In this document: piece by piece, positions 1 to 13,234 of the stretch
Layout: the number at the start of each line of letters is the position of its first letter
How positions within the stretch are numbered: the stretch's first letter is position 1
Origin: an uncultured Candidatus Saccharibacteria bacterium
Lineage (GTDB): Bacteria > Patescibacteriota > Minisyncoccia > Ryanbacterales > HO2-45-13
Length of the DNA: 64,000 nucleotides
Direction: 5' to 3'
Assembly (NCBI GenBank): GCA_964354975.1
Contig: CAYHBS010000002.1
Coordinates: 16,088 to 80,087, forward strand
The notes under the pieces: generated by a model
Database searches by the model: none
What the model was told of the DNA's origin: nothing
What the model saw: only the letters and a program-made list of their open reading frames with translations
Program-made: the position numbers and the translations under genes

Positions 1-1
1 T

Positions 2-250
2 CGACTCGAGATCGATCCGCGCGCCGGACAGCTGTTTGTCTTCTGCAATGCCCGGCACAACCGACTCAAGATCCTTCAGTTCGATTCGTCCGGCGTTTGG
101 GTCGCGGCCAAGCGGCTCGAGAAAGGGACGTTTCGTTGGCCCGAGTCTCGCGATCGCACGATCGTGCTGAGCTACGAAGAGATGGTGATGATCGTGGGCG
201 GACTCGATGCGACGAGCACGCGTCGACGTCGCTGGTATGGTCGTGGATAA
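2..250 (+). pseudogene. tnpB: IS66 family Orf2 (TnpB) 3' fragment, truncated by the window start
   Basis: The translation RLEIDPRAGQLFVFCNARHNRLKILQFDSSGVWVAAKRLEKGTFRWPESRDRTIVLSYEEMVMIVGGLDATSTRRRRW matches the conserved IS66 Orf2 C-terminal region. The stop codon is at 248-250. Confidence 0.6.
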
Positions 251-299
251 CTCGTGCATTGCCGAGCGCGCGCGTATTGACCGAGTACGCGTCGTCCTC

Positions 300-494
300 G
301 GGCTGCGAGTCCTTGCTCTGATGCTCGGCCAGCTCGGCCGCCGCGGCAGCGAGCGCTTCGTCGAGCAGTTTGGCGAAATCCAAGCGCAGCTGCTCGGGGC
401 TCACCTGCTCGGAGCGCCGCCCGTACAGTCGTCGTAGCAGCGCCGAGGGCGGACGCAGAGCGGCCGTGCTGTACTCGCTGGTGGTCAGCTGCAA
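300..494 (-). pseudogene. IS66 transposase N-terminal-like fragment, inverted relative to the other pieces
   Basis: The minus-strand translation ...ALLRRLYGRRSEQVSPEQLRLDFAKLLDEALAAAAAELAE matches the N-terminal motif of IS66 transposases. Downstream similarity is lost. Confidence 0.35.
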
Positions 495-642
495 GCGACT
501 CGGGATCGATCCCTACGCCTACCTGCGCGACGTGATCGCCACGGTGGCAACCTATCCGAACAAGCGCATCGGCGAGCTCACGCCGAGGGCGTGGGCCGCG
601 GCGCGCGAACCTCGGAGCGAGACCCGCGTCGCTTCGGCATAG
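370..642 (+). pseudogene. IS66 family transposase (TnpC) C-terminal fragment
   Basis: The ORF ends with LYSLVVSCKRLGIDPYAYLRDVIATVATYPNKRIGELTPRAWAAA, characteristic of IS66 TnpC C-termini. The upstream about 400 residues of a normal TnpC are missing. Confidence 0.5.
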
Positions 643-783
643 CCGGCCTTACCGGTCTCAAGCCTTATCGGCAGTTGGTCGAACGCTTACGTTCCTCCGG
701 TGTGACCGTGAACAGTGCGGTCTGATCTCGTTGTACTCCCGTCGCCAGCTCTCGATCACGACCTTCGCTTCCTTCTGTGAATC

Positions 784-824
784 GGCTTCCAACTTTGACC
801 CCTTTCGGCGCGCGATTTTGCACG
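784..824. repeat. About 40-bp direct repeat copy 1 (ttccaacTttgacccctttcggcgcgcGatTttg)
   Basis: Near-identical to 2331-2371. The reverse complement contains GGGGTCAAG twice, spaced about 23 bp apart. Confidence 0.6.
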
Positions 825-880
825 GAACCGGACATTTCTACTTTGCGATGACAGCGCTGGGTTGACTCCACTACCCGGCC

Positions 881-1219
881 TTACGGAGGCACGGGCCGGC
901 TGCGCTGCTGCAGCCACTCCAGGAGCGGACCCAGCCCATCGGGTACAGACATCTCGTCGAACTCGAACCGGCGCACGTCCACACCGGTGTGGAGTTCGAG
1001 TTCGTACACGATCTGATCCCTCGCTGAAGAGGACCGCGCGGCAGACACGTCTGATCTCGCGCTGCTTGCAAAGCGCTCGATGGCGAGACGATGTGCGGCG
1101 ACCAGCTCCTCCGCTGCGACATCGCAACCGCGCGAGAGGTTCGCAAAGCCGCCAGACTGCCGGAAATGGATCTGCCGCAGGCTCATATCAAAAACCGACG
1201 GCCTTCCATGCCTTCGCAA
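881..1219 (-). CDS. Hypothetical 112-aa protein co-oriented and overlapping (32 nt) with the M4 protease gene; candidate protease-partner (emfourin-like inhibitor?)
   Basis: ORF directly downstream of the protealysin-like protease on the same strand, with overlapping stop and start. No recognisable catalytic motif. The partner role is inferred from the known bicistronic protealysin-inhibitor arrangement. Confidence 0.35.
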   Translation of the reverse strand: MRRHGRPSVFDMSLRQIHFRQSGGFANLSRGCDVAAEELVAAHRLAIERFASSARSDVSAARSSSARDQIVYELELHTGVDVRRFEFDEMSVPDGLGPLLEWLQQRSRPVPP

Positions 1220-2225
1220 CAGCTTTCTCTTCGGTCGTGCCCATGGCCGCGGCCATCCGCGTGCTCATCGCAACCATCTCGGCGAAATCGCTTTGCTTAT
1301 TCAGCGCCAGCAACGTCTGGTACCAGATTGCTCCGGCCCTGACCCACGCGTTGCCACCGAGCGCCGTCGCCGTGAGGAAGAACGCGTGATTGGGGATGCC
1401 CGAGTTGATGTGCACGCCACCCGAATCTGCAGGGCCTGTGTACTTGTCACACAAGTGCTTCGGTTGAGGGTCGGTCCCTAGATTCGGATCGTTCTCGTAA
1501 GCCTTCCCCTCTTTGAACGTCCGCAGCGACTTGGCCGTCGTGCCCGGACCCATGATGTCGGGGCCGATAAGCCAGTCAGCCTTCGTGGCCGTCTGCTTCC
1601 TTTTCCACTGCTTGACGAGGGTCCCGAAAACGTCAGCAAAATGTTCGTTGAGCGCGCCCGACTCGTCCCGATAGTCCAGGTTCGACGTGTGGCTCACCAC
1701 GCCATGCGTCAGTTCGTGACCCACTACGTCCATCGACCGCGTGAACCGATTGAAAATAACGCCGTCCCCATCGCCATACGCCATCTGCTCGCCGTTCCAG
1801 AACGCGTTGTTGTACTTGTTTCCGAGGTGCACACTTGAGATGAGTGACATTCCGCGGTCATCAAGTGAATTACGGTTGAGCACCTTTTTATAGAAGTCGT
1901 AGGTCGCGCCCGAGTAGTCGTACGCTTCGTTCACGGCGGGATCTGTAGATTTGTTGTCACCCTCGCTGCGCACAAGCTTGCCGGGCAAAAGCGACGAGCC
2001 CTGCTTCTGCATGTCGTAGATCAGCCGATCCTTCTTGGCCCCTGGCGACGGTACCGCGGCCATCATCGCGAACTGCGAAAGCGCGGTGCGCGTTGCGCGC
2101 AACGACGCGGATCGGGCGATGGCCTCGATCGCCAGCTTACGCACTGCCGGGATCGGTGACTCGGCCATCTTGTCTAGTACGTACGGCGGGAGGATGCAGT
2201 GAATAGGCTTGCGTCCGCAGCTCAT
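1188..2225 (-). CDS. M4 (thermolysin-family) zinc metalloprotease, protealysin-like subfamily
   Basis: HEXXH motif (VVGHELTHGV) plus downstream NEHFADVFG glutamate, typical of M4 peptidases. There is no signal peptide, and the short N-terminal propeptide carries the PPL-type motif (CILPPYVLDKM). A strong SD (AAAGGAG) lies 8 nt upstream of the ATG at 2225. Confidence 0.85.
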   Translation of the reverse strand: MSCGRKPIHCILPPYVLDKMAESPIPAVRKLAIEAIARSASLRATRTALSQFAMMAAVPSPGAKKDRLIYDMQKQGSSLLPGKLVRSEGDNKSTDPAVNEAYDYSGATYDFYKKVLNRNSLDDRGMSLISSVHLGNKYNNAFWNGEQMAYGDGDGVIFNRFTRSMDVVGHELTHGVVSHTSNLDYRDESGALNEHFADVFGTLVKQWKRKQTATKADWLIGPDIMGPGTTAKSLRTFKEGKAYENDPNLGTDPQPKHLCDKYTGPADSGGVHINSGIPNHAFFLTATALGGNAWVRAGAIWYQTLLALNKQSDFAEMVAMSTRMAAAMGTTEEKAVAKAWKAVGF

Positions 2226-2330
2226 GCTTATCTCCTTTATGATGTCTTACGCGTGTTCTCCGTCTTCGCTCTGCAGCGATTGGTCATTTTGTATCCGCCC
2301 ACCGAACCTGATGCCATTACGGTGTGGCTC

Positions 2331-2371
2331 AGCTTCCAACCTTGACCCCTTTCGGCGCGCAATCTTGACCC
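2331..2371. repeat. About 40-bp direct repeat copy 2 (ttccaacCttgacccctttcggcgcgcAatCttg), about 100 bp upstream of the protease start
   Basis: Matches 784-824 with 3 mismatches. The two copies bracket the protease/partner gene pair. Confidence 0.6.
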
Positions 2372-2720
2372 CACCCGGTGCTTGAGATCCTCAGTAACCA
2401 CGCTCGGTTGCACGGGCATGGTCGGGGTCACGCTTGGACGCCGATACGGGGTCACACGGCACGCCTCGGGACGCGAGGTAGTGCCGCTCGGCCCCGCGCT
2501 CGACGACTTCTCGCCGGCGCGTGTAGCGCTCTCGGGATCGCTGGATGATCTCGGCGCTGTAAGGCGCTGCAGGGGTAGGGTGGCAGAGAGTCCGGCCACT
2601 GAACGGCGCGGACGTTCGTCCGTTCACGGCAAGCCGGAGATAGATGTCGTGGTGATCGAGCCCGGTCAGATCATCAGTGCACACGCTGATCCTTACAAGA
2701 TTTCACCGCATGCGTTCTCG

Positions 2721-3110
2721 TCAGTCGTACGTAGCCACCGTGGGTGAGAATCCGCGACCGCAAGTGTCGCATTTTTCATGAACGTCGACGTAGCCAGAGG
2801 CATTGCGCTCTGCCAGTTGGGATACAAGCGTCCCCGAGCAGGGTGGCGGACATTTCCGAACCCGCCAGTGATCACCGCACATCGTGCAGAGATACGAAGT
2901 GCCAACTTCGTCTGGGCTCGACTCGATTTCGTGGTTTTCACATGTAGGACAGCACTGAACTACTTTCATCTCTTCCCTCTGTGCCAACGGCTCGCCGAGT
3001 TTGTTGATCGAGGATACCACATGTATCCGCGGAATAGTGGCGGAGCCCACCGGACGACGGCGGGGGACAGATGCCGAGTGGCAACTGAGCGACCGTCGTT
3101 TACCGCTCAA
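2721..3110 (-). CDS. Cys-rich putative zinc-ribbon protein (4 CxxC-type motifs)
   Basis: Contains CCPTC, CTMCG, CPPPC and CDTCG. It overlaps the upstream MBL gene by 11 nt, which suggests operon coupling. Confidence 0.4.
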   Translation of the reverse strand: MSGKRRSLSCHSASVPRRRPVGSATIPRIHVVSSINKLGEPLAQREEMKVVQCCPTCENHEIESSPDEVGTSYLCTMCGDHWRVRKCPPPCSGTLVSQLAERNASGYVDVHEKCDTCGRGFSPTVATYD

Positions 3111-4206
3111 TCACGGCGTCGTAGCGCCCGTCGGTCGTTGCCTGGATGCGCACAGTGCCGTCCCATCCCGTCGCCAGGATCGCTTTCTCTACCTGAACCG
3201 GTGAGAAATCGCGGACGCCGTTTGCGACCAATACGGTTTTCTTCGTCGCCCGCTCGGTAGCGATTGATTGAGTCAACAGGTCAACGGTGACCCGTCGAGG
3301 GTGCCCAAACTGCCACCCTGTGAATTTCTCTTGTGGATGCGAGCGGCCGTATTCCGCGTCCTCCATTGAAATTACGGCGATCGCAGGCGTCATCGCCTCG
3401 AGCAGCTTCCTCGTAGTCCCGTTATACGATCCATGATGCCCGACATGGTAGACGTCGACGTCGAGCGTCGTTGTCCCCCTGTACCAATCGAGCAACGTGC
3501 CGATCGCGTATTCCTCGAGATCGCCCGTGAACAGAAAGGATGACTCCCCGTAGTCGACACGCGTTACGAGGCTATGGTTGTTCTTGTTCGCCCATTCGCC
3601 TTGTGGCCATCCGGGATTGTCATCCATCCGGCCTGACAGAATACGAATCCGCGGGTTCACATCGCCACAATCGATCGGGTCGATGATGTCATCCGTTAGC
3701 CCTGTGCGCGTGGGAAGTCTGGTGATTTCGGAGTCGGCGACCTGGCGCGTCTCGATGTGGAGTGTTTCGGCGTTGTTCCTCACCCAGTTGGGCTCCCCAG
3801 TTCCCGTGCCGGTGCTCTGGCCGGAGTCGATAAAACGTTCCACCGTAAATGATTCGACAATCTCCCGCAGTGCCCGGGTATGGTCGATGTGGTTGTGCGT
3901 GATGATGATGGCGTCGAGCGTGTGGTGAAGTGCGGTGTGAAGAGGATCATCGAAGAAGGCTTGTAAATAGGCCACGAGTGCGTCGGCTTTCTCTTGATCC
4001 CTCGCGCCGGCGTCGATCAACACCGCTCCGCACGGGAACTCGAGGAGCGTGGCATCCGCTTGGCCTACGTCGATGAAATGCGCCACCATCGGCGCCGTTT
4101 CAGCAGCAGCAAAGCGCACTGAAAGCGCGAGAGCGCCGACAGCACAACAAACGCGGTAGGCGAGCCTGCGAGTCACAAAACACTGAACGGGCATAACAAA
4201 CTCCAC
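3100..4206 (-). CDS. Secreted metallo-beta-lactamase-fold hydrolase, ComEC/Rec2-type MBL domain
   Basis: N-terminal signal-peptide-like segment. MBL HxHxDH motif (ITHNHIDHT) and a downstream HVGHHGS motif, typical of ComEC C-terminal-like MBL domains. Confidence 0.7.
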   Translation of the reverse strand: MEFVMPVQCFVTRRLAYRVCCAVGALALSVRFAAAETAPMVAHFIDVGQADATLLEFPCGAVLIDAGARDQEKADALVAYLQAFFDDPLHTALHHTLDAIIITHNHIDHTRALREIVESFTVERFIDSGQSTGTGTGEPNWVRNNAETLHIETRQVADSEITRLPTRTGLTDDIIDPIDCGDVNPRIRILSGRMDDNPGWPQGEWANKNNHSLVTRVDYGESSFLFTGDLEEYAIGTLLDWYRGTTTLDVDVYHVGHHGSYNGTTRKLLEAMTPAIAVISMEDAEYGRSHPQEKFTGWQFGHPRRVTVDLLTQSIATERATKKTVLVANGVRDFSPVQVEKAILATGWDGTVRIQATTDGRYDAVIER

Positions 4207-4390
4207 ATCCCCGAAACGACGACACGGATTGTGCCGTGCCTATCTCGGGCGAAGCAATAGGGGATTCCCCTTACGACGCGGACAGCCCTGGACAGAACGG
4301 CTGAAACCGTCGTATTAAACGGCGGCTCGAGGGGGCAGTCGACGTCGGCACACTTGACGCGACGTACCTACTGCGCACACAAGACAGACA

Positions 4391-5683
4391 ATGTACGACC
4401 TGGGGCTTGCACTGTCGGGTGGCGGCTCTCGTGCCGCCGCCTTCCACGCTGGAACGCTCAGGGCGATAGCCGATCTCCATCTCGTCGAGCGAATCGATGT
4501 TGTCTCGACGGTCTCTGGCGGGTCGTTGTTCGGGGGCGCCTGGCTCGCGGCGCGCGCCAGGGGTGAGTCAGAAGACGCATTCCTGGCAAGCATGAAGACG
4601 GAGCTCGAGAGAGGTTTCATCCTACGTTCGCTTCGCCCCTCGCTGGCGAAAACGTTCCTCCCGTGGCTCGAATACACCCGGACGCACGTGATCGGCGACA
4701 CGTTCGACCGGATTTTCCTTAAAGGCTTGACGCTCTCTGGCTTGCCCGAGCGCCCGGCGCTATGCCTGAACACGTCAATCCTCAACAACGGCCAGGTAGG
4801 GAAGTTCTCGCGTGAGGGATTTTCTGCTTGGGGCCTAAAAGTGCCCGGCGCAACGCCTGAGCATGTCGTCCCGTGGCACAACTTCCCGGTCGCGTACGCA
4901 GTGGCTGCCTCTGCGGCATTCCCGGTTGGACTACCGCCGCTTCGGCTGGGCCACGGACGATTTCCGTCCGGTACACGCTTCACGGAGGGACTTGCGGGTT
5001 CGAAACACCTTTTCCTAACCGATGGCGGCGTGCTGGAGAATCTAGGGATTCAGACGCTCCTGCGATCCGGCCGGTTCGCGGCTTGGGATCTTATCGTCAG
5101 TGACGCTGGCACAGCAGATACACGGTGGAGTCTCGTGCCAGGATGGTCGACAGTAAAGGGCCTAGGTATCTGGATTGCGAGTGGGCGGATCTTGGACCGA
5201 CTCATGATCGTGATGAACAACAAACAGAATCGGTGGGCTCGTCAGGAGGTGATCGACCAACTTGAATCCTCGTGGTTCGCAGCGGCTCTCCGTGACGGCC
5301 TAAAGACACCTGCCATCGATACTCTGCTGCGCACTCATCCCGTCCGGGCTCGGAGAAAGCTCATCTTCGCTCGCGTGAATCAGACCCGAAAATCTTTTGT
5401 CACTGGCATACCGAGACATCGGCTCGCAGAACTCGCCGATGGCAACGAGCGTGACGTCCCTGGGTCAGATGACTACGGGGGGTTATGTGACTTTCTACGC
5501 GCCGCGGGAGTGCATCTGGAGCAGGCGGACACATACTACGGTCAACTCGGCGATGACACGCAGGCGCTCGCAATGAATGAGGTGAAGACAAACTTCACCG
5601 CGTTACCAACGCAAGTCGTTGAACAACTGTCAAACCACGCTGCGTGGCAGGTGCACGCATGCGCGGCTGTGTACGGTGGATGA
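4391..5683 (+). CDS. Patatin-like phospholipase
   Basis: Oxyanion hole GGGSRAAAFHAG, nucleophile elbow G-x-S-x-G (TVSGGS) and catalytic Asp in the DGG motif (LTDGGVLENLG). Confidence 0.8.
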   Translation: MYDLGLALSGGGSRAAAFHAGTLRAIADLHLVERIDVVSTVSGGSLFGGAWLAARARGESEDAFLASMKTELERGFILRSLRPSLAKTFLPWLEYTRTHVIGDTFDRIFLKGLTLSGLPERPALCLNTSILNNGQVGKFSREGFSAWGLKVPGATPEHVVPWHNFPVAYAVAASAAFPVGLPPLRLGHGRFPSGTRFTEGLAGSKHLFLTDGGVLENLGIQTLLRSGRFAAWDLIVSDAGTADTRWSLVPGWSTVKGLGIWIASGRILDRLMIVMNNKQNRWARQEVIDQLESSWFAAALRDGLKTPAIDTLLRTHPVRARRKLIFARVNQTRKSFVTGIPRHRLAELADGNERDVPGSDDYGGLCDFLRAAGVHLEQADTYYGQLGDDTQALAMNEVKTNFTALPTQVVEQLSNHAAWQVHACAAVYGG

Positions 5684-5720
5684 GCAAAGAGGCTCACATC
5701 GATAGGTCGGGTGCCAAGGT

Positions 5721-6365
5721 ATGAAAATTGAAGAGATCGGGCCGTGGATACTGTTGTTTGTAGGCGCGCTGTTACTGCTGGGCGGTGCTTCTCTTGCCGC
5801 CCGAAAGCGTGGCAGTGTCCCAATGATCACCATCCTACTGATCTTTGGCCTCGGAACTGCGGGCATTGGCGTGTATGGCCCAACCTTTTTGGATCGATAC
5901 CAGCTGCTCAAAACGGTGGGGCCGTTGATTGGTTCACCGAGCCACGAGAGCTACAATGCGTTCCTCTCCGGTGTAGCGAGGGGGGACGTCGGACCGCTCG
6001 AGCGAGAACTTGGCCTGTCCTACATCTTGCAGCGGCCGATCGACGGGACAGAAGAGCTACTTCAGGCAGCGACGGCAAAGGCGGAACAAGATGACGCCCG
6101 AGTCGCTCTCAGCGCCGCAGGACAATGGCTCGAGGGGCGCCAGCGGGTAGCGGCTGTCTTGGCGGCCGATCTGATGCCGTCCAACCATACCGCGCGTCTT
6201 AGCGAGGAACAAGTCAAATTATTTGACCCGGCAACCCGCACCTTGATTATTCGCGATCTCGAGAAGCACGACGGGCGGCGACTCGCGACTGACCCGGGCG
6301 TCGTTGCACGGCTGAAGCACACAACACCTGATTTTCTGGAGCCAGGTCCAGTCATAGATCGGTGA
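5721..6365 (+). CDS. Membrane protein (two N-terminal TM helices), hypothetical
   Basis: Hydrophobic N-terminus (WILLFVGALLLLGGASLAA, ITILLIFGLGTAGIGVY). High-GC codon usage like the upstream genes. Confidence 0.4.
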   Translation: MKIEEIGPWILLFVGALLLLGGASLAARKRGSVPMITILLIFGLGTAGIGVYGPTFLDRYQLLKTVGPLIGSPSHESYNAFLSGVARGDVGPLERELGLSYILQRPIDGTEELLQAATAKAEQDDARVALSAAGQWLEGRQRVAAVLAADLMPSNHTARLSEEQVKLFDPATRTLIIRDLEKHDGRRLATDPGVVARLKHTTPDFLEPGPVIDR

Positions 6366-8089: not shown

Positions 8090-8608
8090 TTGAGAAGGAG
8101 GTGCCGTATGGCACGCCAAAACGTAGAGTTCGCTATTGTCCAAGGACCCTCGAAGCTCGATCTGATGCTCTCTCTGTTCGACACTAACATGGGGGTGCGG
8201 ACGGTGAGTTTTCTGACGGCCAAGGGTGAAAACCAACCGGGTTTCTCCTACAACGTCCATATCATCTCCGTGAGGAGAGGACATCCCAGCGCAAAGATCT
8301 GGGAAATCGAGGGGCTCACAGAAACCCAAAACGGGAAGAAGAGGGTCTTGATCTACTACCTCTCGGACACGCGCGAAGGTCACATGAGAATCGAAGAGAA
8401 TCTTCGGACCAAAGGAATCATTGAAACGCCCAACAACTCTCGGAAAGCGGGTGCTCTCCTCGAAATCATCTTCAGGATGATTAACAGGTATCGGGAAAGT
8501 CATTCCGGCAACCTGGACGAAGAGATCTTCAATTTTTTCGAGAAGGCGAAGCGAGTTTACTACGCCAAGGACCGCTATTTCCTCACCAGGGCGATCAAGA
8601 ATATCTGA
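8090..8608 (+). CDS. Hypothetical protein (172 aa)
   Basis: Strong SD (GAAGGAGGTG) 6 nt upstream of the ATG. A terminator hairpin follows. No recognisable motifs. Confidence 0.5.
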   Translation: MRRRCRMARQNVEFAIVQGPSKLDLMLSLFDTNMGVRTVSFLTAKGENQPGFSYNVHIISVRRGHPSAKIWEIEGLTETQNGKKRVLIYYLSDTREGHMRIEENLRTKGIIETPNNSRKAGALLEIIFRMINRYRESHSGNLDEEIFNFFEKAKRVYYAKDRYFLTRAIKNI

Positions 8609-8626
8609 GGTCAAGAACCTCAACCA

Positions 8627-8670
8627 GGGCCCCTCGTGGAAGAAATTCCGCGTGGGGCTCTCACTTTTTA
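8627..8670 (+). terminator. Rho-independent terminator after the 8090-8608 gene
   Basis: GC-rich imperfect hairpin (GGGCCCCTCGTGG...CCGCGTGGGGCTC) followed by CTTTTTATATTT. Confidence 0.5.
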
Positions 8671-9253
8671 TATTTGTAATTTGTTGATATAATTCCATAA
8701 AGAATTTAAGAATTTGCCGCCAAAGCAGTAAATTCAACATCAATCTTCATCATTGAATCCGACAATTTGGATCTTTTGACTTTCTTGCTCATTCGACGCC
8801 TCCAAATCCCTGCCTCAATATATTAAAGAGAATTACTGCCGCAACTACAGACTCACGCTACACATAAGACAATATATCATTGGAATTTTATAAAAAGAGA
8901 ACCGTTTCACGTGCAACACCACAAATGATTACCCATAATCACTCGTACATATCAAGACTCTCTTAGATTTAGTATGTCGCACAAATAATATGTGAAACAC
9001 TCAAAACTATTACAATATTGATATTATAGACAATGTCGCTAAAGAAGATCCGAAGTTACGCCTAATACCAACAGTCAGTAGGCGGAAATAATAAGGAGGT
9101 TATGGTTTCACGTGAAATACACAGCTACTGTGGATAACTTGTGTGTTAAAATATAAAGGCCAGTGTCCCTGACCTTAAATGTCTTGTAGGATAAGGACAT
9201 ATGGCCTTGACCCTTGTGTGTATGAACCGTGGATAACTATTGATATTATGAGC

Positions 9254-9790
9254 CTTCAAAAGGACGTTGGTGAGGTAGGAGAGGATATTGTCCGATTGTT
9301 TCTCATGAAACAAGGGCATTCTATCGTCGCAAAAAACGCTCTTGGATATGGCTTTGAAATTGATATTGTTTCACGATATCATGGTTGCTTCTATTTTATC
9401 GAGGTAAAAAGTGTTTCCCATGAAACATATAGTCCCGGCTATTACGCCAGCGACAGATCGCGCTTACTTGTATGGCTTGGCAATGTTGCCAGAGGAGGAT
9501 GGAGAATACTTTCCGAGGGGAAAAAGAGTCGAAAGATTTTATTCTGGAATATCAATGAGACTGGGGAATCTTCTTCTGAAACGCAGATCGAGGAGTGGAA
9601 TAATTTGCTCGCTGGCGCGGCTGACCGAGTGAATTCGCTGAAATTGTTACATGTGAAACGAGGGATTGAGATTCTGACTCATAAGGGTCTCGTCCCGGAT
9701 GATGCCGAGCTGTCTTTTGAGGTGATAACGGTCATGCTCGATTTCTTTAGAAAAACCGCTATAATACAGCGCATTCCTTGTGAACTCTGA
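9254..9790 (+). CDS. YraN/UPF0102-family (PD-(D/E)xK) endonuclease-like protein with about 80-aa C-terminal extension
   Basis: MSLQKDVGEVGEDIVRLFLMKQGHSIVAKNALGYGFEIDIVSRYHGCFYFIEVKS matches the YraN family pattern (GE..A..YL...G..IL.RN.R...GEIDL.A.....L.FVEVK). The upstream in-frame extension to 9179 is probably not translated. Confidence 0.55.
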   Translation, partial: LQKDVGEVGEDIVRLFLMKQGHSIVAKNALGYGFEIDIVSRYHGCFYFIEVKSVSHETYSPGYYASDRSRLLVWLGNVARGGWRILSEGKKSRKILFWNINETGESSSETQIEEWNNLLAGAADRVNSLKLLHVKRGIEILTHKGLVPDDAELSFEVITVMLDFFRKTAIIQRIPCEL

Positions 9791-9852
9791 TGTTTCATGT
9801 GAAACGCGGAGGCTCTGATATTGGAGCTTTTAGCTGATAGGGGAAATACCAG

Positions 9853-10036
9853 CTTACTGTGACTCTCGGGCTGTCGGCCGTACTTCTATGAGATAAATTA
9901 AGGAAGTCGGCACCACCCGTATTGAGAATATCATCACCTTACGGTGATTATCGGGCTGTCGGCCGCACTTCTAAGAGATAAGCTATTGAAGTCGGCACCA
10001 CTTGTATTGAAAGTATCGTCACCTCGCGGTGACTAA
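9853..10036 (+). repeat. Tandem repeat of about 85 bp (two full units plus a third that continues into tRNA-Pro); each unit begins with a copy of the tRNA-Pro 5' leader and first 10 nt (cgggctgtcg) and ends in a GGTGA/TCACC hairpin
   Basis: Unit A 9853-9937 and unit B 9938-10022 are about 85% identical over their full length. The third unit (10023-) diverges into the authentic tRNA at 10037. Confidence 0.7.
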
Positions 10037-10107
10037 CGGGCTGTCGTATACCGGTAGTACGCATGTTTTGGGAACATGTAGACTGGGTTCAATTCCCAGC
10101 AGCCCGA
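10037..10107 (+). tRNA. tRNA-Pro (anticodon TGG), CCA not encoded
   Basis: Manual fold: acceptor CGGGCTG/CAGCCCG, D-arm GTAT-ACCGGTA-GTAC, anticodon stem CATGT/ACATG with loop TTTGGGA (U33, anticodon UGG, G37), T-arm CTGGG-TTCAATT-CCCAG, discriminator A followed by CCG. Confidence 0.8.
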
Positions 10108-10109
10108 CC

Positions 10110-10234
10110 GGTTTTTGGAGGGAAGCAGGAGGCAAACTGCTTTGCCTCTGTTGGGAATTGAAGGGCGAGCGATGTGCGAAGCACCGCAAAGCCCCGGCCG
10201 AGCTGATGGAGCGAGGAAGACCAGCAGCCCGACC
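10110..10234 (+). ncRNA. tRNA-linked structured element copy 1 (hairpin GAGGCAAAG/CTTTGCCTC, hairpin GTGCgaaGCAC, then a duplicate of the tRNA-Pro 3' end CCAGCAGCCCGACC)
   Basis: About 75% identical to the element after the second tRNA-Pro. The first hairpin shows compensatory changes between copies (GAGGCAAA/TTTGCCTC versus CAGGTAAA/TTTACCTG). Confidence 0.4.
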
Positions 10235-10269
10235 AGTAATCGTGAAGAAAGAATGCCTATTTTAATGTG

Positions 10270-10340
10270 CGGGACGTCGTATACCGGTAGTACATACGAT
10301 TCGGGTTCGTATAGACTGGGTTCGATTCCCAGCGTCCCGA
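10270..10340 (+). tRNA. tRNA-Pro (anticodon CGG), CCA not encoded
   Basis: Acceptor CGGGACG/CGTCCCG, same D-arm as the first tRNA-Pro, anticodon stem TACGA/TCGTA with loop TTCGGGT (anticodon CGG), T-arm CTGGG-TTCGATT-CCCAG, discriminator A. Confidence 0.8.
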
Positions 10341-10342
10341 CT

Positions 10343-10480
10343 GAACGAAGTGAAGGAGGTGCAGCAGGTAAACTACTTTACCTGCGTTGGGAATCGAAGG
10401 GCGAGCGATGTGCGTAGCACCGCATAGCCCCGGCCGAGCAGATAAAGCGAGGGATTCCCAGCCTGCCCACTTTGTGGGCG
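10343..10480 (+). ncRNA. tRNA-linked structured element copy 2 (hairpin CAGGTAAAG/CTTTACCTG, hairpin GTGCgtaGCAC, terminal hairpin GCCCACtttGTGGGC)
   Basis: Paralogous to 10110-10234 with covarying stem positions. Confidence 0.4.
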
Positions 10481-10563
10481 GCCCGAATGAATAAACAAAA
10501 GAGTGCGAAAAAAGTAAACTGATGCGTCTGCATTTGGATTGAATAACTCGGTATTTTTTTGAA

Positions 10564-10592
10564 TAAAAAAAGGAGTGCTGGTTAGGCACTCC
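10564..10592 (-). terminator. Rho-independent terminator for the 10607-10978 gene
   Basis: On the minus strand, hairpin GGAGTGCctaaccaGCACTCC followed by TTTTTTTT, immediately downstream of the stop. Confidence 0.65.
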
Positions 10593-10606
10593 AAGGTTCT
10601 GAAGCA

Positions 10607-10978
10607 CTACTCAAGTGTCGGCACCCTTTCGATTATATAGTCATTATTGAAACAATCTCCGCGATACACTTCGGTGCGAATCTTGTAGGGCAGCTTAGCC
10701 CTCCTAAATCTTTGATTGAGACTGCCAATTATGCCACCCGTGCTAAAACCATCAAACATTGTTTGGCCATGCGCTCTTCCTTTCCCATTTCGAAGTGCTA
10801 CAAGGAGTCCGGTAGTTTTTCCCTGAAATGCAAGGGTTGTGAAAATATTCTCCCAATCTTTGTGTGTTAAAGAAGGGGGATTTTCGTCGGTTTCAATGTT
10901 TGTTGTCGAGATTGTTTCCCAAGTTGCTTTGCCTTTTGCGTCTCGTGATTGTTGTTGGATCGTGATGCGGAGCAACAT
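10607..10978 (-). CDS. Small basic protein, possibly a divergent ribosomal protein L19 homolog (tentative)
   Basis: LAFQGKTTGLLVALRNGKG and RFRRAKLPYKIRTE loosely parallel the L19 motifs AFEGVVIAIRNRG and RKAKLYYLRE. The similarity is weak. Confidence 0.35.
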   Translation of the reverse strand: MLLRITIQQQSRDAKGKATWETISTTNIETDENPPSLTHKDWENIFTTLAFQGKTTGLLVALRNGKGRAHGQTMFDGFSTGGIIGSLNQRFRRAKLPYKIRTEVYRGDCFNNDYIIERVPTLE

Positions 10979-11087
10979 AAGACCTCCTTTTTTCCTGGAA
11001 GACTCCTAGACGAAGGAAAGCAGAAAGCGCATGAGAAGTCAAATAGTTGCAGCAAAAGATATCCTAACGACGTAACAGTACTTACCA

Positions 11088-12551
11088 CTATTTCACTTTG
11101 TGGCGTTTTTTTATTTTTTCGACTTCAGAACCCTCAACTTCTGCGGATGTTGATTTTGCTTCTTCTGATTTTTTCTTCAGCGCTACGTCATCCAGTTTGT
11201 TCAATGTTATTGCGAGATCCATGAGATATTCTTTCGTATTGTTCTTTGGCTCGTCGAGCACCGCGCCAAGAAGTGCATTCAATATATAACCAATGCGCGG
11301 GCTAGGGGAGAGTGAGAGCTCTTTCATAAGATCATTTCCAGTGACCTTGAGCATTTTCACGGATATTGGATCGCGCTGGAGTTGTTCCACCATGAAACGA
11401 AAATGACGCAATTTATATGGCTCTGCCTTTGGTACGCCCGAACCGATGCGGTCGCACATACGCACGCGAATGAGATCTTCCATATCTTCCACTCCCACTT
11501 GCGCAATGAGGCGTCGTACTGACGCGGGCGTCACTTCATCAACGTTGTAGTAGAACAAATGAAAGCGCACCAGCTTGGTGACTTTTTCTACCACCGACTT
11601 TGAATATTTCATACGCTCAAGTAGTGGACGCGCCATTTGCGCACCCACAATGTCGTGATTATAGAACGTGGAATATGTTCCATCGCCTTTTTTGGTGCGT
11701 GGTTTTGCAACGTCGTGAAGCAGTGCGCCGAGACGTACTTCAAGTGACCACCCTTGCTCCGCCGCGTATTTGAGCGCACGTACGTTGTGCTCCCACACCG
11801 TGTAGATGTGATGCAAATTTTGACCAACACCAATGCCCTCACAGAGTTCTGGCATGATGTATTGCATTAAGTCGAGCGTTTCGAGTTGTTGCACACCCAC
11901 TTCGGGATGCTCGGACATAATGATGCGGTCAAATTCCGCGCGAATCCGCTCCATCGCAATATCTTTGAGGAGTGCGGAATATTTATGCACGGCATTTGCG
12001 GTTTCGGACGCTATGGCAAAATCCAGTTGTGTAGCAAAGCGTACTGCACGCATAAGGCGAAGCGCGTCTTCGGAAAGTCGTGCAGCAGGATCTCCCACGG
12101 TTTTTACAATCTTCTTTGCCAAATCTTTCTCTCCACCAAATGGATCGACAATTTCAAAATCATTTTTTACGCGACACATTGCCATTGCATTGATGGTGAA
12201 ATCGCGACGTGCTAAATCTTTCTCAAGCGAATCGACAAATTCCACAGCGTCGGGGCGGCGGCGATCAGCATATCCCTGTTCGGTTCGGTACGGAGTCACT
12301 TCAATGATTGCGAGTGTTTCATCTTCACTTCCCGTTTTTATGCCGACCGTGCCGAAATTATTTTCGTAGACGTGGTCGGGGAATAACTTTTGAATATCTT
12401 CTGGTTTTGCGTTTGTCGTTACGTCCCAATCAGCGGGGGCGCGGCCAAGGAGTAAATCGCGAACACATCCACCAACAATGTATGCATCAAAACCACCTTC
12501 CTCAAGTATGTTGAGGACGCGCGTTACTTCAATTGGAATGGAGTATTTCAT
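11088..12551 (-). CDS. cca: CCA-adding tRNA nucleotidyltransferase (class II, PolyA_pol head plus HD domain)
   Basis: N-terminal GGCVRDLLLGR...DWDVTT nucleotidyltransferase motif. RDFTINAMA motif. HD domain in the C-terminal half. 487 aa. Confidence 0.85.
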   Translation of the reverse strand: MKYSIPIEVTRVLNILEEGGFDAYIVGGCVRDLLLGRAPADWDVTTNAKPEDIQKLFPDHVYENNFGTVGIKTGSEDETLAIIEVTPYRTEQGYADRRRPDAVEFVDSLEKDLARRDFTINAMAMCRVKNDFEIVDPFGGEKDLAKKIVKTVGDPAARLSEDALRLMRAVRFATQLDFAIASETANAVHKYSALLKDIAMERIRAEFDRIIMSEHPEVGVQQLETLDLMQYIMPELCEGIGVGQNLHHIYTVWEHNVRALKYAAEQGWSLEVRLGALLHDVAKPRTKKGDGTYSTFYNHDIVGAQMARPLLERMKYSKSVVEKVTKLVRFHLFYYNVDEVTPASVRRLIAQVGVEDMEDLIRVRMCDRIGSGVPKAEPYKLRHFRFMVEQLQRDPISVKMLKVTGNDLMKELSLSPSPRIGYILNALLGAVLDEPKNNTKEYLMDLAITLNKLDDVALKKKSEEAKSTSAEVEGSEVEKIKKRHKVK

Positions 12552-12826
12552 ATGTTGCGTATTTGTAATGCACCGCGCAGCATTTGCTTTAATGCATTCT
12601 TACCACGTGTGGTCTTAAAATATCCTTCACGTCACTTCGCATCATCTATGACGCTGTGTGCTTCATAATATATTAAAACAAACGGACGACGTGACTTGGT
12701 AGACTTTGACCCGCCATTCTTGTGCTCTTTCATTCTTCTCCGCAAATCCGATGAGTAACCGATATATAGCTTATTGTCCAAGAGACTTTTTAGGACATAG
12801 GTATAGTACATTCTCCTATTGTACAT
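12548..12826 (-). pseudogene. GIY-YIG nuclease-domain gene interrupted by an in-frame TGA (codon at 12630-12632) at a conserved Arg position
   Basis: The N-terminal 64 aa (YTYVLKSLLDNKLYIGYSSDLRRRMKEHKNG...RRPFVLIYYEAH) is classic GIY-YIG. After the TGA, the same frame continues as REGYFKTTRGKNALKQMLRGALQIRNI, matching the family C-terminus (KRREKYFKTTKGKKAL..ML). Its terminal TGA overlaps the cca ATG (ATGA coupling). Confidence 0.6.
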
Positions 12827-12984: not shown

Positions 12985-13130
12985 TATGCACAAAAACATT
13001 AAATCATGAAAACACATGAACATTAAAGCACAAGAACACCAGAACATTAAAGCAAAAAAACATTAAATTATGAAAACACAAGAACATTAAATCACAAAAA
13101 CACGAAAACAAAAGAACACAAACAGTTTAT
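12985..13130. repeat. A-rich degenerate tandem repeat (aacattaaa[gt]ca... units, about 8 copies)
   Basis: Repeated acattaaa cores at irregular spacing of about 17-21 bp between tRNA-Lys and tRNA-Arg. Confidence 0.6.
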
Positions 13131-13234
13131 CGCGATCCCCCCGCCAGCTGGCGGATCCCACCCCGCTTTGCGGGGACGCTCCGACTTTCGAGTCCCTCCC
13201 GTCCCGCGCACCGGCGGGACTCTCGGACGCCTTG
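13131..13234 (-). other. GC-rich cluster of 3-4 hairpins immediately 3' of tRNA-Arg (CGCCAGCTGGCG palindrome, CCCCGCtttGCGGGG, GTCCCGCcggtgcGCGGGAC)
   Basis: Local GC is much higher than the flanking sequence. Contains a T-arm-like GGAGGGACTCGAAAGTC segment. Could be a terminator array, an att-site remnant or a small RNA. Confidence 0.35.

Follow-up and report, generated by a model that had tools for sequence, protein, structure and literature searches.

The analysed window comprises 64,000 nucleotides (nt) of contig CAYHBS010000002.1 (assembly GCA_964354975.1) and is an ordinary chromosomal stretch of Hainich groundwater Patescibacteria of the Parcubacteria type, carrying rpsO, genes for PNPase and a Xer-type recombinase, the CCA-adding-enzyme gene (cca), a UPF0102 nuclease-like gene and ComEC. 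The locus described here, at 9853-10480, contains two tRNA-Pro genes, each followed by a structured element (E1 and E2), and an array of 85-bp units upstream of the first gene; all of these features lie on the plus strand. Both tRNA genes, recognised in an earlier reading of this DNA (the initial annotation), were called by ARAGORN and by the Rfam tRNA model (RF00005, gathering threshold 29 bits): tRNA-Pro(TGG) at 10037-10109 (57.6 bits over 10037-10107), whose gene ends in ACC followed by G and thus encodes CCA incompletely, and tRNA-Pro(CGG) at 10270-10341 (54.2 bits over 10270-10340), which has no encoded CCA. Each gene is 100% identical to its counterpart in the related locus L008. E1, a single 125-nt unit, occupies 10110-10234, and E2, its paralogue as proposed in the initial annotation, occupies 10342-10470. 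The two align at 83% identity and have in common a near-identical 44-nt core, which was matched twice in the window against an expectation of 0.00.

The first hairpin of E1, hp1, reads GGAGGCAAA-CTGC-TTTGCCTCT (10128-10149) and was delineated by covariation; its counterpart in E2, GCAGGTAAA-CTAC-TTTACCTGC (10364-10385), was delineated by covariation and by alignment with E1. The compensatory changes previously reported between the two copies of this hairpin (GAGGCAAA/TTTGCCTC versus CAGGTAAA/TTTACCTG) are present in the alignment. Right after hp1 comes an antisense segment covering the T loop, the 3' strand of the T stem and the first acceptor bases of the neighbouring tRNA. In E1 this segment, CTGTTGGGAATTGAA (10148-10162), is antisense to tRNA positions 10088-10102 (TTCAATTCCCAGCAG), one of the pairs being a U.G wobble, and in E2 the segment GCGTTGGGAATCGAA (10384-10398) is complementary to tRNA positions 10321-10335 (TTCGATTCCCAGCGT) with two wobbles. 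The E1 core (10163-10219) consists of helix P3, GGGC...GCCC, around GCG-AU-GUGC-GAA-GCAC-CGC, followed by CCGAGC...GCGAGG, where a tandem G.A is possible. E1 ends with a second, sense copy of the tRNA 3' end, CCAGCAGCCCGACC (10221-10234), which had been noticed before and is an exact 14-nt repeat of 10096-10109; the sequence occurs exactly twice in the window, with 0.01 occurrences expected. Together with A10235 this distal copy reads ACCA, versus ACCG at the end of the tRNA-Pro(TGG) gene, and an A-to-G variant of the copy is found in L008 and in one sibling assembly (L005). The E2 sense copy, GATTCCCAGC (10453-10470), contains the 3' part of the T loop and the T-stem 3' strand, its acceptor part having diverged (CTGCCCAC), and pairs with 10386-10395. 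This helix, P2, formed by the antisense segment and the 3' sense copy, closes a multi-helix fold.

Several other identities were considered for these sequences. E1 and E2 were not called as tRNAs by either ARAGORN or Rfam. A coding function was rejected: the differences between E1 and E2 show no three-base periodicity, the element is offset from that of L008 by a 1-nt indel and no gene was called there. A GC-rich hairpin, GCCCAC-TTT-GTGGGC (10465-10479), overlaps the tail of E2 and is not followed by a U tract; neither this hairpin nor hp1 was accepted as an intrinsic terminator, since a terminator scan of the plus strand over 9500-11200 found none and no T runs follow either hairpin. A fold resembling the hepatitis delta virus ribozyme was also rejected, the 5' end of the element having no partner for a P1 helix in a by-eye check.

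Across 13 members of the family described below, hp1 was 98.3% paired with double-sided changes in 7 of its 9 pairs, and none of 500 shuffles did as well. RNAalifold on a plain MAFFT alignment of whole elements missed the closing helix because insert lengths vary, and a covariance-model (CM) alignment was used in its place for the whole-element fold. With this alignment of 11 distinct sequences, a five-helix model had 96.8% of cells paired and double changes in 23 of 29 pairs, figures that are upper bounds because the alignment leans towards the structure under test; sliding the partners by 1-3 columns lowered pairing to 30-44%. The GCG-AU-helix-CGC motif was confirmed separately, and conserved unpaired nucleotides comprise the CUGC loop, the AU bulge and the tandem G.A. 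Taken singly, E2 folds with z = -3.43. Of the two strands, the tRNA-sense one gives the more stable fold in 13 of 19 elements; it holds 73 G.U pairs versus 40 on the complement (Wilcoxon p = 0.006). U.G is the commonest pair at one P2 position, and the P4 helix CUGC/GUAG has a G.U pair in each of five members of type AB. The proposal that covariation in the first hairpin marks a conserved RNA structure rather than coding sequence is borne out both by hp1 and by the larger fold.

Relatives of the elements were sought in a survey of every tRNA in 80, later 160, related loci (L-numbered; L001-L005 are among the sibling assemblies of the same population). An exact 12-nt copy of the T-stem 3' strand plus acceptor 3' strand was found within 450 nt downstream of 21 of 269 tRNAs, for which chance would give about 0.007 by our calculation (450/4^12 per tRNA); with one mismatch allowed, 39 of 498 tRNAs had a 3'-end copy, a few of these being merely tandem tRNA genes. 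The sequence between a tRNA and its copy has a shared architecture behind tRNA-Pro, Arg, Lys, Gly, Ser and Ala. A spacer, holding either hp1 with a CUGC or CUAC loop or an intrinsic terminator, comes first. The T loop and T-stem 3' strand of the tRNA in question are then copied in antisense, in some cases on through the acceptor strand, and a structured core and finally the sense copy follow. The 3'-end repeat measures 14 nt in E1 and 14-29 nt in relatives, and tandem units occur twofold in L002 (E1), threefold in L033 and 1.4-fold in L080.

Two core types were distinguished. Type A/AB, to which E1 and E2 belong, has GAA, a P3 enclosing GCG-AU-helix-CGC and a P4 region CCGAG...CGAGRG able to form tandem G.A, and is found behind tRNA-Pro, Arg and Ala in about 15 of the 160 loci. 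An nhmmer profile of this type matched 16 copies in the loci and the window: 15 downstream of a same-strand tRNA at a distance of no more than 200 nt, plus one that forms the third unit of an array. A covariance model (R1) seeded with E1, E2 and the L008 orthologue found 17 copies in the loci, independent members scoring 16-57 bits; E1 (136.6 bits; nhmmer 2e-22) and E2 (127.2 bits) are themselves seeds, so that their own CM scores are not independent. Type C has a core of GAACGGGAAAGGGGUCGGGAA-hairpin-CCGUAUAGGAAG...AAACC-GNNN-GGUUU...GGGACGAYG with further hairpins and the same tRNA-anchored layout. It was found behind tRNA-Pro, Arg and Lys (L018, L034, L050, L061, L073, L074, L086), always after an intrinsic terminator that follows the tRNA; seven of eight strong matches lie behind tRNAs and the eighth is at a contig end.

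A partial, divergent third member was read directly from the sequence in the window, behind tRNA-Arg(TCG) at 13125-13233 on the minus strand. Its hairpin is accompanied by the antisense segment GGAGGGACTCGAA (13199-13187), complementary to the T loop and T-stem 3' strand of tRNA-Arg, and by a GGAGCG-hairpin core, and it ends without a terminal sense copy; it scores below the nhmmer and CM thresholds. Over the tRNA-Arg gene plus about 70 nt, conservation with L008 is approximately 85%. Neither this member, nor the internal reverse complement of the tRNA, nor the wide occurrence of the family had been remarked on in the initial annotation.

The Infernal/Rfam check suggested there confirmed the tRNAs and placed the elements in no family: at gathering score, Rfam 15 matched only tRNAs in the window and 13 related loci, and at E-values up to 10 gave only spurious weak matches over 9400-10900 and for the element of L086, none fitting E1, E2 or type C. 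Full-text literature searches found no description of the elements. E1 and E2 are very likely members of a conserved structured family on the tRNA-sense strand, and this family is apparently undescribed and widespread in Patescibacteria. An origin as a miniature inverted-repeat transposable element (MITE) or other insertion-sequence-derived miniature was rejected, as one arm of the inverted pair is the copy of the tRNA end and all but one family match lie behind tRNAs or in an array behind one; in the window, copies were found only at tRNAs, against the expectation for a dispersed MITE.

Conservation of the element bodies was assessed by comparison with diverged neighbours. E1 is 96.7% identical over 122 nt to its orthologue in L008, against a 47% difference at four-fold sites of cca and strong divergence of the tRNA leader. 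Behind tRNA-Pro(CGG), L008 has sequence that cannot be aligned with E2. For type C, the cores of L073 and L074, a close species pair, differ at 3 of 120 positions, of which two fall in a hairpin loop; the difference is 7 of 46 positions for the adjoining spacer and 19% for four-fold sites. This run of conserved, diverged and again conserved sequence favours selection over one recent transfer.

Up to six independent sibling assemblies agree base for base over the array, the two tRNAs, E1 and E2. One sibling (L002) has two tandem 125-nt E1 units with identical copies, another (L001) has a run of N there, and several sibling contigs break inside the region. The single E1 copy of the window may accordingly reflect a collapsed repeat or a polymorphism, and within the locus uncertainty is confined to the copy number of E1. 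It is scarcely conceivable that the locus as a whole is an assembly artefact, that is, a collapsed or chimeric repeat. The variation of E1 between one copy, two copies and a run of N among siblings, and the contig breaks, would suit that explanation; against it stand the identity of the array, tRNAs and elements in up to six assemblies and the orthologous and paralogous elements found in many unrelated assemblies. The possibility of misassembly raised in the initial annotation thus survives for the copy number of E1 and lapses for the array, tRNAs and elements. More generally, the element repeats break assemblies and shift copy number, and partial tRNA copies can mislead annotation.

A further suggestion was that the locus carries scars of repeated integrase activity, that is, neutral partial tRNA duplications of the attL/attR type and decayed traces of integrases or homing endonucleases. 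Like attL/attR sites at tRNA genes, the elements have a direct repeat of the tRNA 3' end (14 nt, exact) flanking an insert, leave the tRNA intact and allow tandem insertion. Many kinds of partial 5' and 3' tRNA copies are indeed present at the surveyed loci, among them simple T-arm-plus-acceptor fragments in L016, L038 and L076 and a tRNA-Ala copy split by a GIY-YIG gene in L013, and a tyrosine recombinase gene lies 5 kb from the elements. That gene, however, belongs to a conserved housekeeping neighbourhood, and clustering of the open reading frames (ORFs) within 2 kb of the elements revealed no enriched recombinase, nuclease or other protein family. The E1 insert is not integrase-bearing or neutrally decaying: it is a 125-nt unit with no ORF and with a conserved, covarying body. 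Across the family the inserts measure 113-170 nt and are geneless, conserved and structured, with an inverted target copy inside and a repeat edge that varies within the T loop. The attL/attR anatomy does not fit because the repeated tRNA 3' end pairs with an internal antisense copy. Neutral scars are excluded for the bodies of E1 and E2, since scars would decay and these bodies are constrained, with a fold that covaries across distant lineages; as an account of the locus in general, scarring is highly improbable.

The favoured reading, put forward tentatively as something quite possible, is that each element would be a self-masked antisense module directed at its own tRNA precursor. Judged by position and strand bias, the module is taken to be transcribed on the tRNA-sense strand as part of the tRNA transcript; of the roles suggested in the initial annotation, that of small RNAs or expression elements co-transcribed with the tRNAs is the most likely. 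The module would have four parts, namely hp1; segment 2, which is antisense to the cognate tRNA from its T loop through the T-stem 3' strand and at most 8 nt into the acceptor 3' strand; the core, with P3 containing GCG-AU-helix-CGC and P4 containing the tandem G.A; and segment 3, the sense copy. In one state (2:3) the module would close on itself, leaving the tRNA free for normal folding and processing. In the other (1:2), segment 2 would pair with segment 1, the tRNA's own copy, and the 5' acceptor strand of the tRNA would take the distal copy, so that the whole transcript would become a long tRNA-like RNA whose T loop contains the module as a giant insertion. Competition between the 1:2 and 2:3 states would be the working principle that makes the module a self-masked antisense device on its own tRNA precursor, and the core and hp1 would serve for recognition, either by a protein or by way of tertiary structure. 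In the DNA, the repeated 3' ends leave the unit liable to be amplified in tandem or lost through unequal recombination.

This reading draws on the pairing potential of segment 2. The segment complements the whole T loop of the adjacent tRNA, tracking the difference between AATTGAA and AATCGAA in the two Pro tRNAs. Calculated duplex energies show that it pairs with the tRNA as well as with its own sense copy, and often better because it spans the full T loop while the sense copy often starts in mid-loop. In minimum free energy (MFE) folds of composites of tRNA and element, the 5' acceptor strand of the tRNA pairs with the distal copy in all 15 composites, most of the tRNA 3' segment pairs with segment 2 of the element in 12 of the 15, and the gain over separate folds is 4-20 kcal/mol; the two composites of the window have z = -4.45 and -3.95. 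The anatomy, the family, its covariation, strand bias, conservation and copy-number variation and the thermodynamic competition are demonstrated; that the modules are transcribed, processed and switched, and have any effect on physiology, we infer.

Several points weigh against this reading. MFE calculations ignore co-transcriptional folding, tRNA tertiary structure and modification, and the preference for the alternative fold arises partly from the repeats alone. In L012 and L171 segment 2 co-varied with its own sense copy and not with the tRNA; selection is therefore clear on 2:3 pairing and only possible on 1:2 pairing. The case for transcription of the elements consists of position and strand bias, and co-transcription of type C would need read-through because an intrinsic terminator separates tRNA and element. 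One CM member, in L160, is an orphan that does not lie behind a same-strand tRNA. The high identity of E1 to its L008 orthologue could reflect a recent recombinational transfer bounded by the tRNA and its copy, and the five-helix covariation, as noted, is measured at its upper bound.

The same structure, strand and conservation evidence would also suit a trans-acting small RNA (sRNA) or ribonucleoprotein, possibly a ribozyme, for which the tRNA gene merely provides expression as part of a dicistronic tRNA-sRNA gene. In that case the tRNA-derived stem would serve as a handle for processing or lend stability, its ends being defined by RNase Z or RNase P, with CCA possibly added, and hp1 and the core would have a function unrelated to the neighbouring tRNA. 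The position and strand of the elements appear compatible with co-transcription, and in several members the basal helix reaches the acceptor part, giving a minihelix like an acceptor and T stem; an A resembling a discriminator, and a C, come next. ACCA is encoded in the distal copy of E1, a CCA-adding-enzyme gene adjoins the locus, E2 and the L012 element retain helix P2 while drifting from the tRNA sequence, and the CUGC loop, AU bulge and tandem G.A are conserved although unpaired. This explanation is nonetheless rather doubtful, as it leaves unexplained why the stem is rebuilt from the sequence of the neighbouring tRNA behind differing specificities and why the antisense segment extends over the full T loop, including bases missing from the sense copy. 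The T loop is the landmark used by RNase Z, RNase P and CCA-adding enzymes, and the putative mimic has none.

Known spacer-derived RNAs offer a partial parallel. The E. coli 3'ETS-leuZ sRNA derives from a spacer of a tRNA transcript. Plant dicistronic tRNA-small nucleolar RNA (snoRNA) genes are processed by RNase Z, according to work that PMC12045711 cites. As in both of these systems, the elements would place a non-tRNA RNA just 3' of a same-strand tRNA, from which it would be released by tRNA-processing enzymes; the known systems differ in having no antisense and sense tRNA copies, no structured family across specificities and no tandem units. The tRNA-like domain of tmRNA, mascRNA and the bacterial Y-RNA-like YrlA resemble the elements in having an acceptor-like or T-stem-like helix whose two strands come from 5' and 3' portions of a larger RNA, and the composite fold of tRNA and element resembles a tRNA with a large insertion. 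Unlike these RNAs, E1, E2 and related elements score below threshold with the Rfam tRNA, tmRNA and mascRNA-menRNA models, and the T loop is replaced rather than kept.

It is unlikely that the elements are non-autonomous selfish insertions lodged in tRNA-gene homology. Such an element would insert in the T-loop/3' region with a replacement 3' end, in the manner of integrative elements, or would spread by homologous or site-specific recombination with the tRNA as arms, and its fold would serve either mobility, as a folded single-strand recombination site comparable to the CTX phage attP or integron attC, or harmlessness. Much of the anatomy agrees with this. Direct repeats of the tRNA 3' end flank every unit, at several loci continuing into the beginning of a further unit; there are tandem arrays, and copy number is polymorphic; elements differ in presence between close relatives, E2 of the window being matched by other sequence in L008 through loss or replacement; and near-identical core halves stand behind different tRNAs across lineages (Lys in L026 versus Arg in L046; Lys in L018 versus Pro in L061). 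The folded helix P2 reproduces the double-stranded target-site sequence, the distal copy has CCA where the proximal copy has none (E1, L086), and GIY-YIG genes and other repeats crowd these tRNA loci. E1 also contains GCGAAGC, a mini-hairpin motif known from single-stranded DNA.

Against such mobility, the absence of any enriched protein family within 2 kb is joined by an absence of copies in viral contigs and in a phage collection: blastn of 9000-12000 against the collection gave no match, and of two degenerate core patterns run against the viral contigs one gave only chance matches in GC-rich coding DNA and the other none. With 113-126 bp, a unit is too short to form a double-stranded circle. 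Within the T loop the left repeat edge lies at varying positions, and arrays break off at arbitrary phases, a pattern that resembles unequal duplication and not one defined crossover; retargeting to a new tRNA needs a change on both strands of the helix. The neutrally diverging spacer beside the conserved core in L073 and L074 likewise indicates selection over recent transfer. CTX phage attP and integron attC sites share with the elements an inverted and a direct copy of the core site about 70-150 nt apart, a hairpin that mimics the duplex target, strand-specific structure and arrays beside one fixed site. The elements differ in that no integrase partner was found for them, their repeat measures 14-29 nt and their multi-helix core with conserved loops has no counterpart there.

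Further systems were compared with the elements. Attenuators and riboswitch platforms likewise have three segments, of which the middle one pairs with either neighbour, and a structured domain between segments 2 and 3; in the elements, segment 1 is part of a mature tRNA and not of a leader, and there is no controlled terminator or ribosome-binding site and no known ligand. In TIGR arrays (PMC12045711), each unit spans about 36 nt and contains two spacers of 9 nt (8-12 nt), box C/D motifs are present and a gene for the Nop-domain protein Tas adjoins. They resemble the elements as tandem RNA-encoding units in Patescibacteria and in the idea of one RNA addressing both DNA strands. The elements have none of the defining TIGR features and were rejected as such an array, their unit being 125 nt long and identical between copies, with no Nop-domain gene among Pfam-annotated neighbours within 10 kb. 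Group I introns in tRNAs of Patescibacteria are inserted at position 35/36 of the anticodon loop (PMC13011429). This identity was likewise rejected, as no match to the Rfam model Intron_gpI was obtained, both tRNA-Pro genes are intact and the element follows the 3' end. On the comparisons made, no known system appears to combine the position, the flanking repeats, the inverted and direct copies and the 1:2 / 2:3 logic.

Patescibacteria make up a large share of bacterial diversity and have tiny genomes and few known regulatory RNAs, and a covarying RNA family coupled to tRNAs of several specificities would be among the few structured non-coding RNA families specific to them. It is possible, though somewhat less likely than not, that the elements represent either a new class of RNA device, which captures a tRNA and switches between normal tRNA and tRNA-like RNA, or an RNA-structured selfish element in tRNA-gene homology; either would be a widespread and hitherto unrecognised layer of tRNA biology in Patescibacteria. 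Were the antisense or decoy logic true, it would provide a new way to control or divert tRNA maturation, and were the elements selfish, they would have a new strategy of persisting in an essential, ultra-conserved gene without breaking it.

The tandem array upstream of tRNA-Pro(TGG) (9853-10046) was resolved by Tandem Repeats Finder as 2.3 copies with a period of 85 and 83% matches, in agreement with the 85-bp units described earlier as containing the tRNA leader, the first 10 nt of the tRNA and a hairpin. Each unit consists, in order, of the 3' half of a leader hairpin, the first 10-11 nt of tRNA-Pro, a body of approximately 55 nt and the 5' half of the next leader hairpin. The two copies of the tRNA-Pro 5' end, both CGGGCTGTCGG, lie in tRNA register at 9867-9877 (copy A) and 9952-9962 (copy B), and a 22-nt probe related to them was matched twice in the window versus 0.00 expected. 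The leader hairpins ATCACC-TTAC-GGTGAT (9933-9948) and GTCACC-TCGC-GGTGAC (10018-10033) stand 3 nt ahead of copy B and of the genuine tRNA-Pro(TGG), respectively; both have the form TCACC-N4-GGTGA and differ by one compensatory A:T to G:C change. Pairing has been lost in the outermost equivalent (approximately 9848-9863), while the hairpin beside the genuine tRNA keeps it through this change.

The array is base-for-base identical in the sibling assemblies L001-L005. In L008, the same leader hairpin precedes the tRNA-Pro genes, and a hairpin with a copy of the tRNA-Pro 5' end also occurs upstream of tRNA-Arg. Single units are found there upstream of both tRNA-Pro genes, each with a 5' fragment matching the tRNA that it precedes (CGGGACGTCGG before tRNA-Pro(CGG)), and the unit bodies are approximately 82% conserved with those of the window. 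The bodies contain weak sigma-70-like hexamers, and the units may act as stacked promoters.

Local alignments and duplex energies, each set against shuffles, gave neither similarity nor complementarity of the unit bodies to the elements or the tRNAs. Two structural connections were accordingly rejected: a split or permuted tRNA with the 5' units and 3' elements as halves, for which unit-element duplex energies were no better than those of shuffles (z -0.08 to +0.92), and unit bodies as tRNA-element modules with an internal deletion, for which local alignments were no better than those of shuffles. In other loci, 5' tRNA copies rarely accompany elements. The upstream units are read as a separate, lineage-specific tandem duplication of the leader/promoter region and the first 10-11 nt of the tRNA, and the repeat of approximately 30 nt left by duplication of the leader would permit further amplification. 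No evidence from these comparisons links them mechanistically to the downstream element family.

Partial 5' tRNA copies of heterogeneous form were observed in several lineages, upstream of tRNA-Pro in L020, L031, L039 and L074 and also in L013, where a GIY-YIG ORF separates the 5' part of a tRNA-Ala from the intact gene (approximately 5100-5430). The tRNA-Pro of L039 has a leader and a trailer with extensive complementarity to each other, and both are flanked by 5' and 3' tRNA fragments.

The cca gene adjoining the locus lies on the minus strand at 11088-12551. Its product is identical on seven contigs from 0.1 um filter fractions of Hainich groundwater metagenomes, and its closest relatives among species-representative genomes all belong to Parcubacteria-type Patescibacteria, L008 at 93% identity and the rest at 50-61%. 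A protein-based metagenome scan for closer relatives found nothing above 61% identity, leaving L008 as the sole intermediate relative. In most relatives tRNA-Pro stands directly behind cca, on the same strand and 30-100 nt away. The window (10607-12551, minus strand, relative to the tRNA-Pro genes) and L008 differ from this: cca and the tRNA-Pro cluster have opposite orientations there and are separated by a 123-aa ORF for which Pfam gave no match.

Near 6 kb, the G+C content of the window falls from approximately 60% (1-6000) to 44-52% (6000-64000), and the sibling contigs L001 and L005 end near the same step, at approximately 6.1-6.3 kb in window coordinates by our mapping. This step could be a strain-variable boundary, an island edge or a chimeric join.

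Other repeats and small ORFs were noted near the tRNA genes. Between tRNA-Arg and tRNA-Lys, just upstream of tRNA-Lys (minus strand), lies an AT-rich degenerate tandem repeat (12988-13122) with periods of 8, 24, 40 and 64, the best score being obtained for period 64 (1.9 copies, 88% matches). Just downstream of tRNA-Lys, a 64-aa GIY-YIG ORF (12632-12826, minus strand) was identified through a Pfam match on the identical gene of L005; by our reading its frame resumes family-like sequence past the stop codon, and it may be a pseudogene. In L008, our translation of 8330-8680 (minus strand) gave a GIY-YIG-like ORF between E1 and the unit preceding tRNA-Pro(CGG). The sequence ATTCGACTT..GCTCATGGTCT.CGACAC occurs ahead of this ORF and again after tRNA-Pro(CGG). 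The related motif TTCGAC stands behind tRNA ends or their copies in L014, L042 and L061, with three tandem 27-nt repeats at 10870-10949 of L061, and these repeats may constitute a second family linked to tRNA 3' ends.

A palindromic insert, CCTGCCTGC-N3-4-GCAGGCAGG, was found inside pseudo-tRNA copies, T loops and type C elements in L020, L039, L061 and L065, and looks like a miniature hairpin insertion sequence. In L056, L066, L067 and L072, several tRNA genes seem to be interrupted in the anticodon loop (...CATTTTCACCCC...), some with a nested tRNA, which is consistent with the group I introns reported for tRNAs of Patescibacteria.

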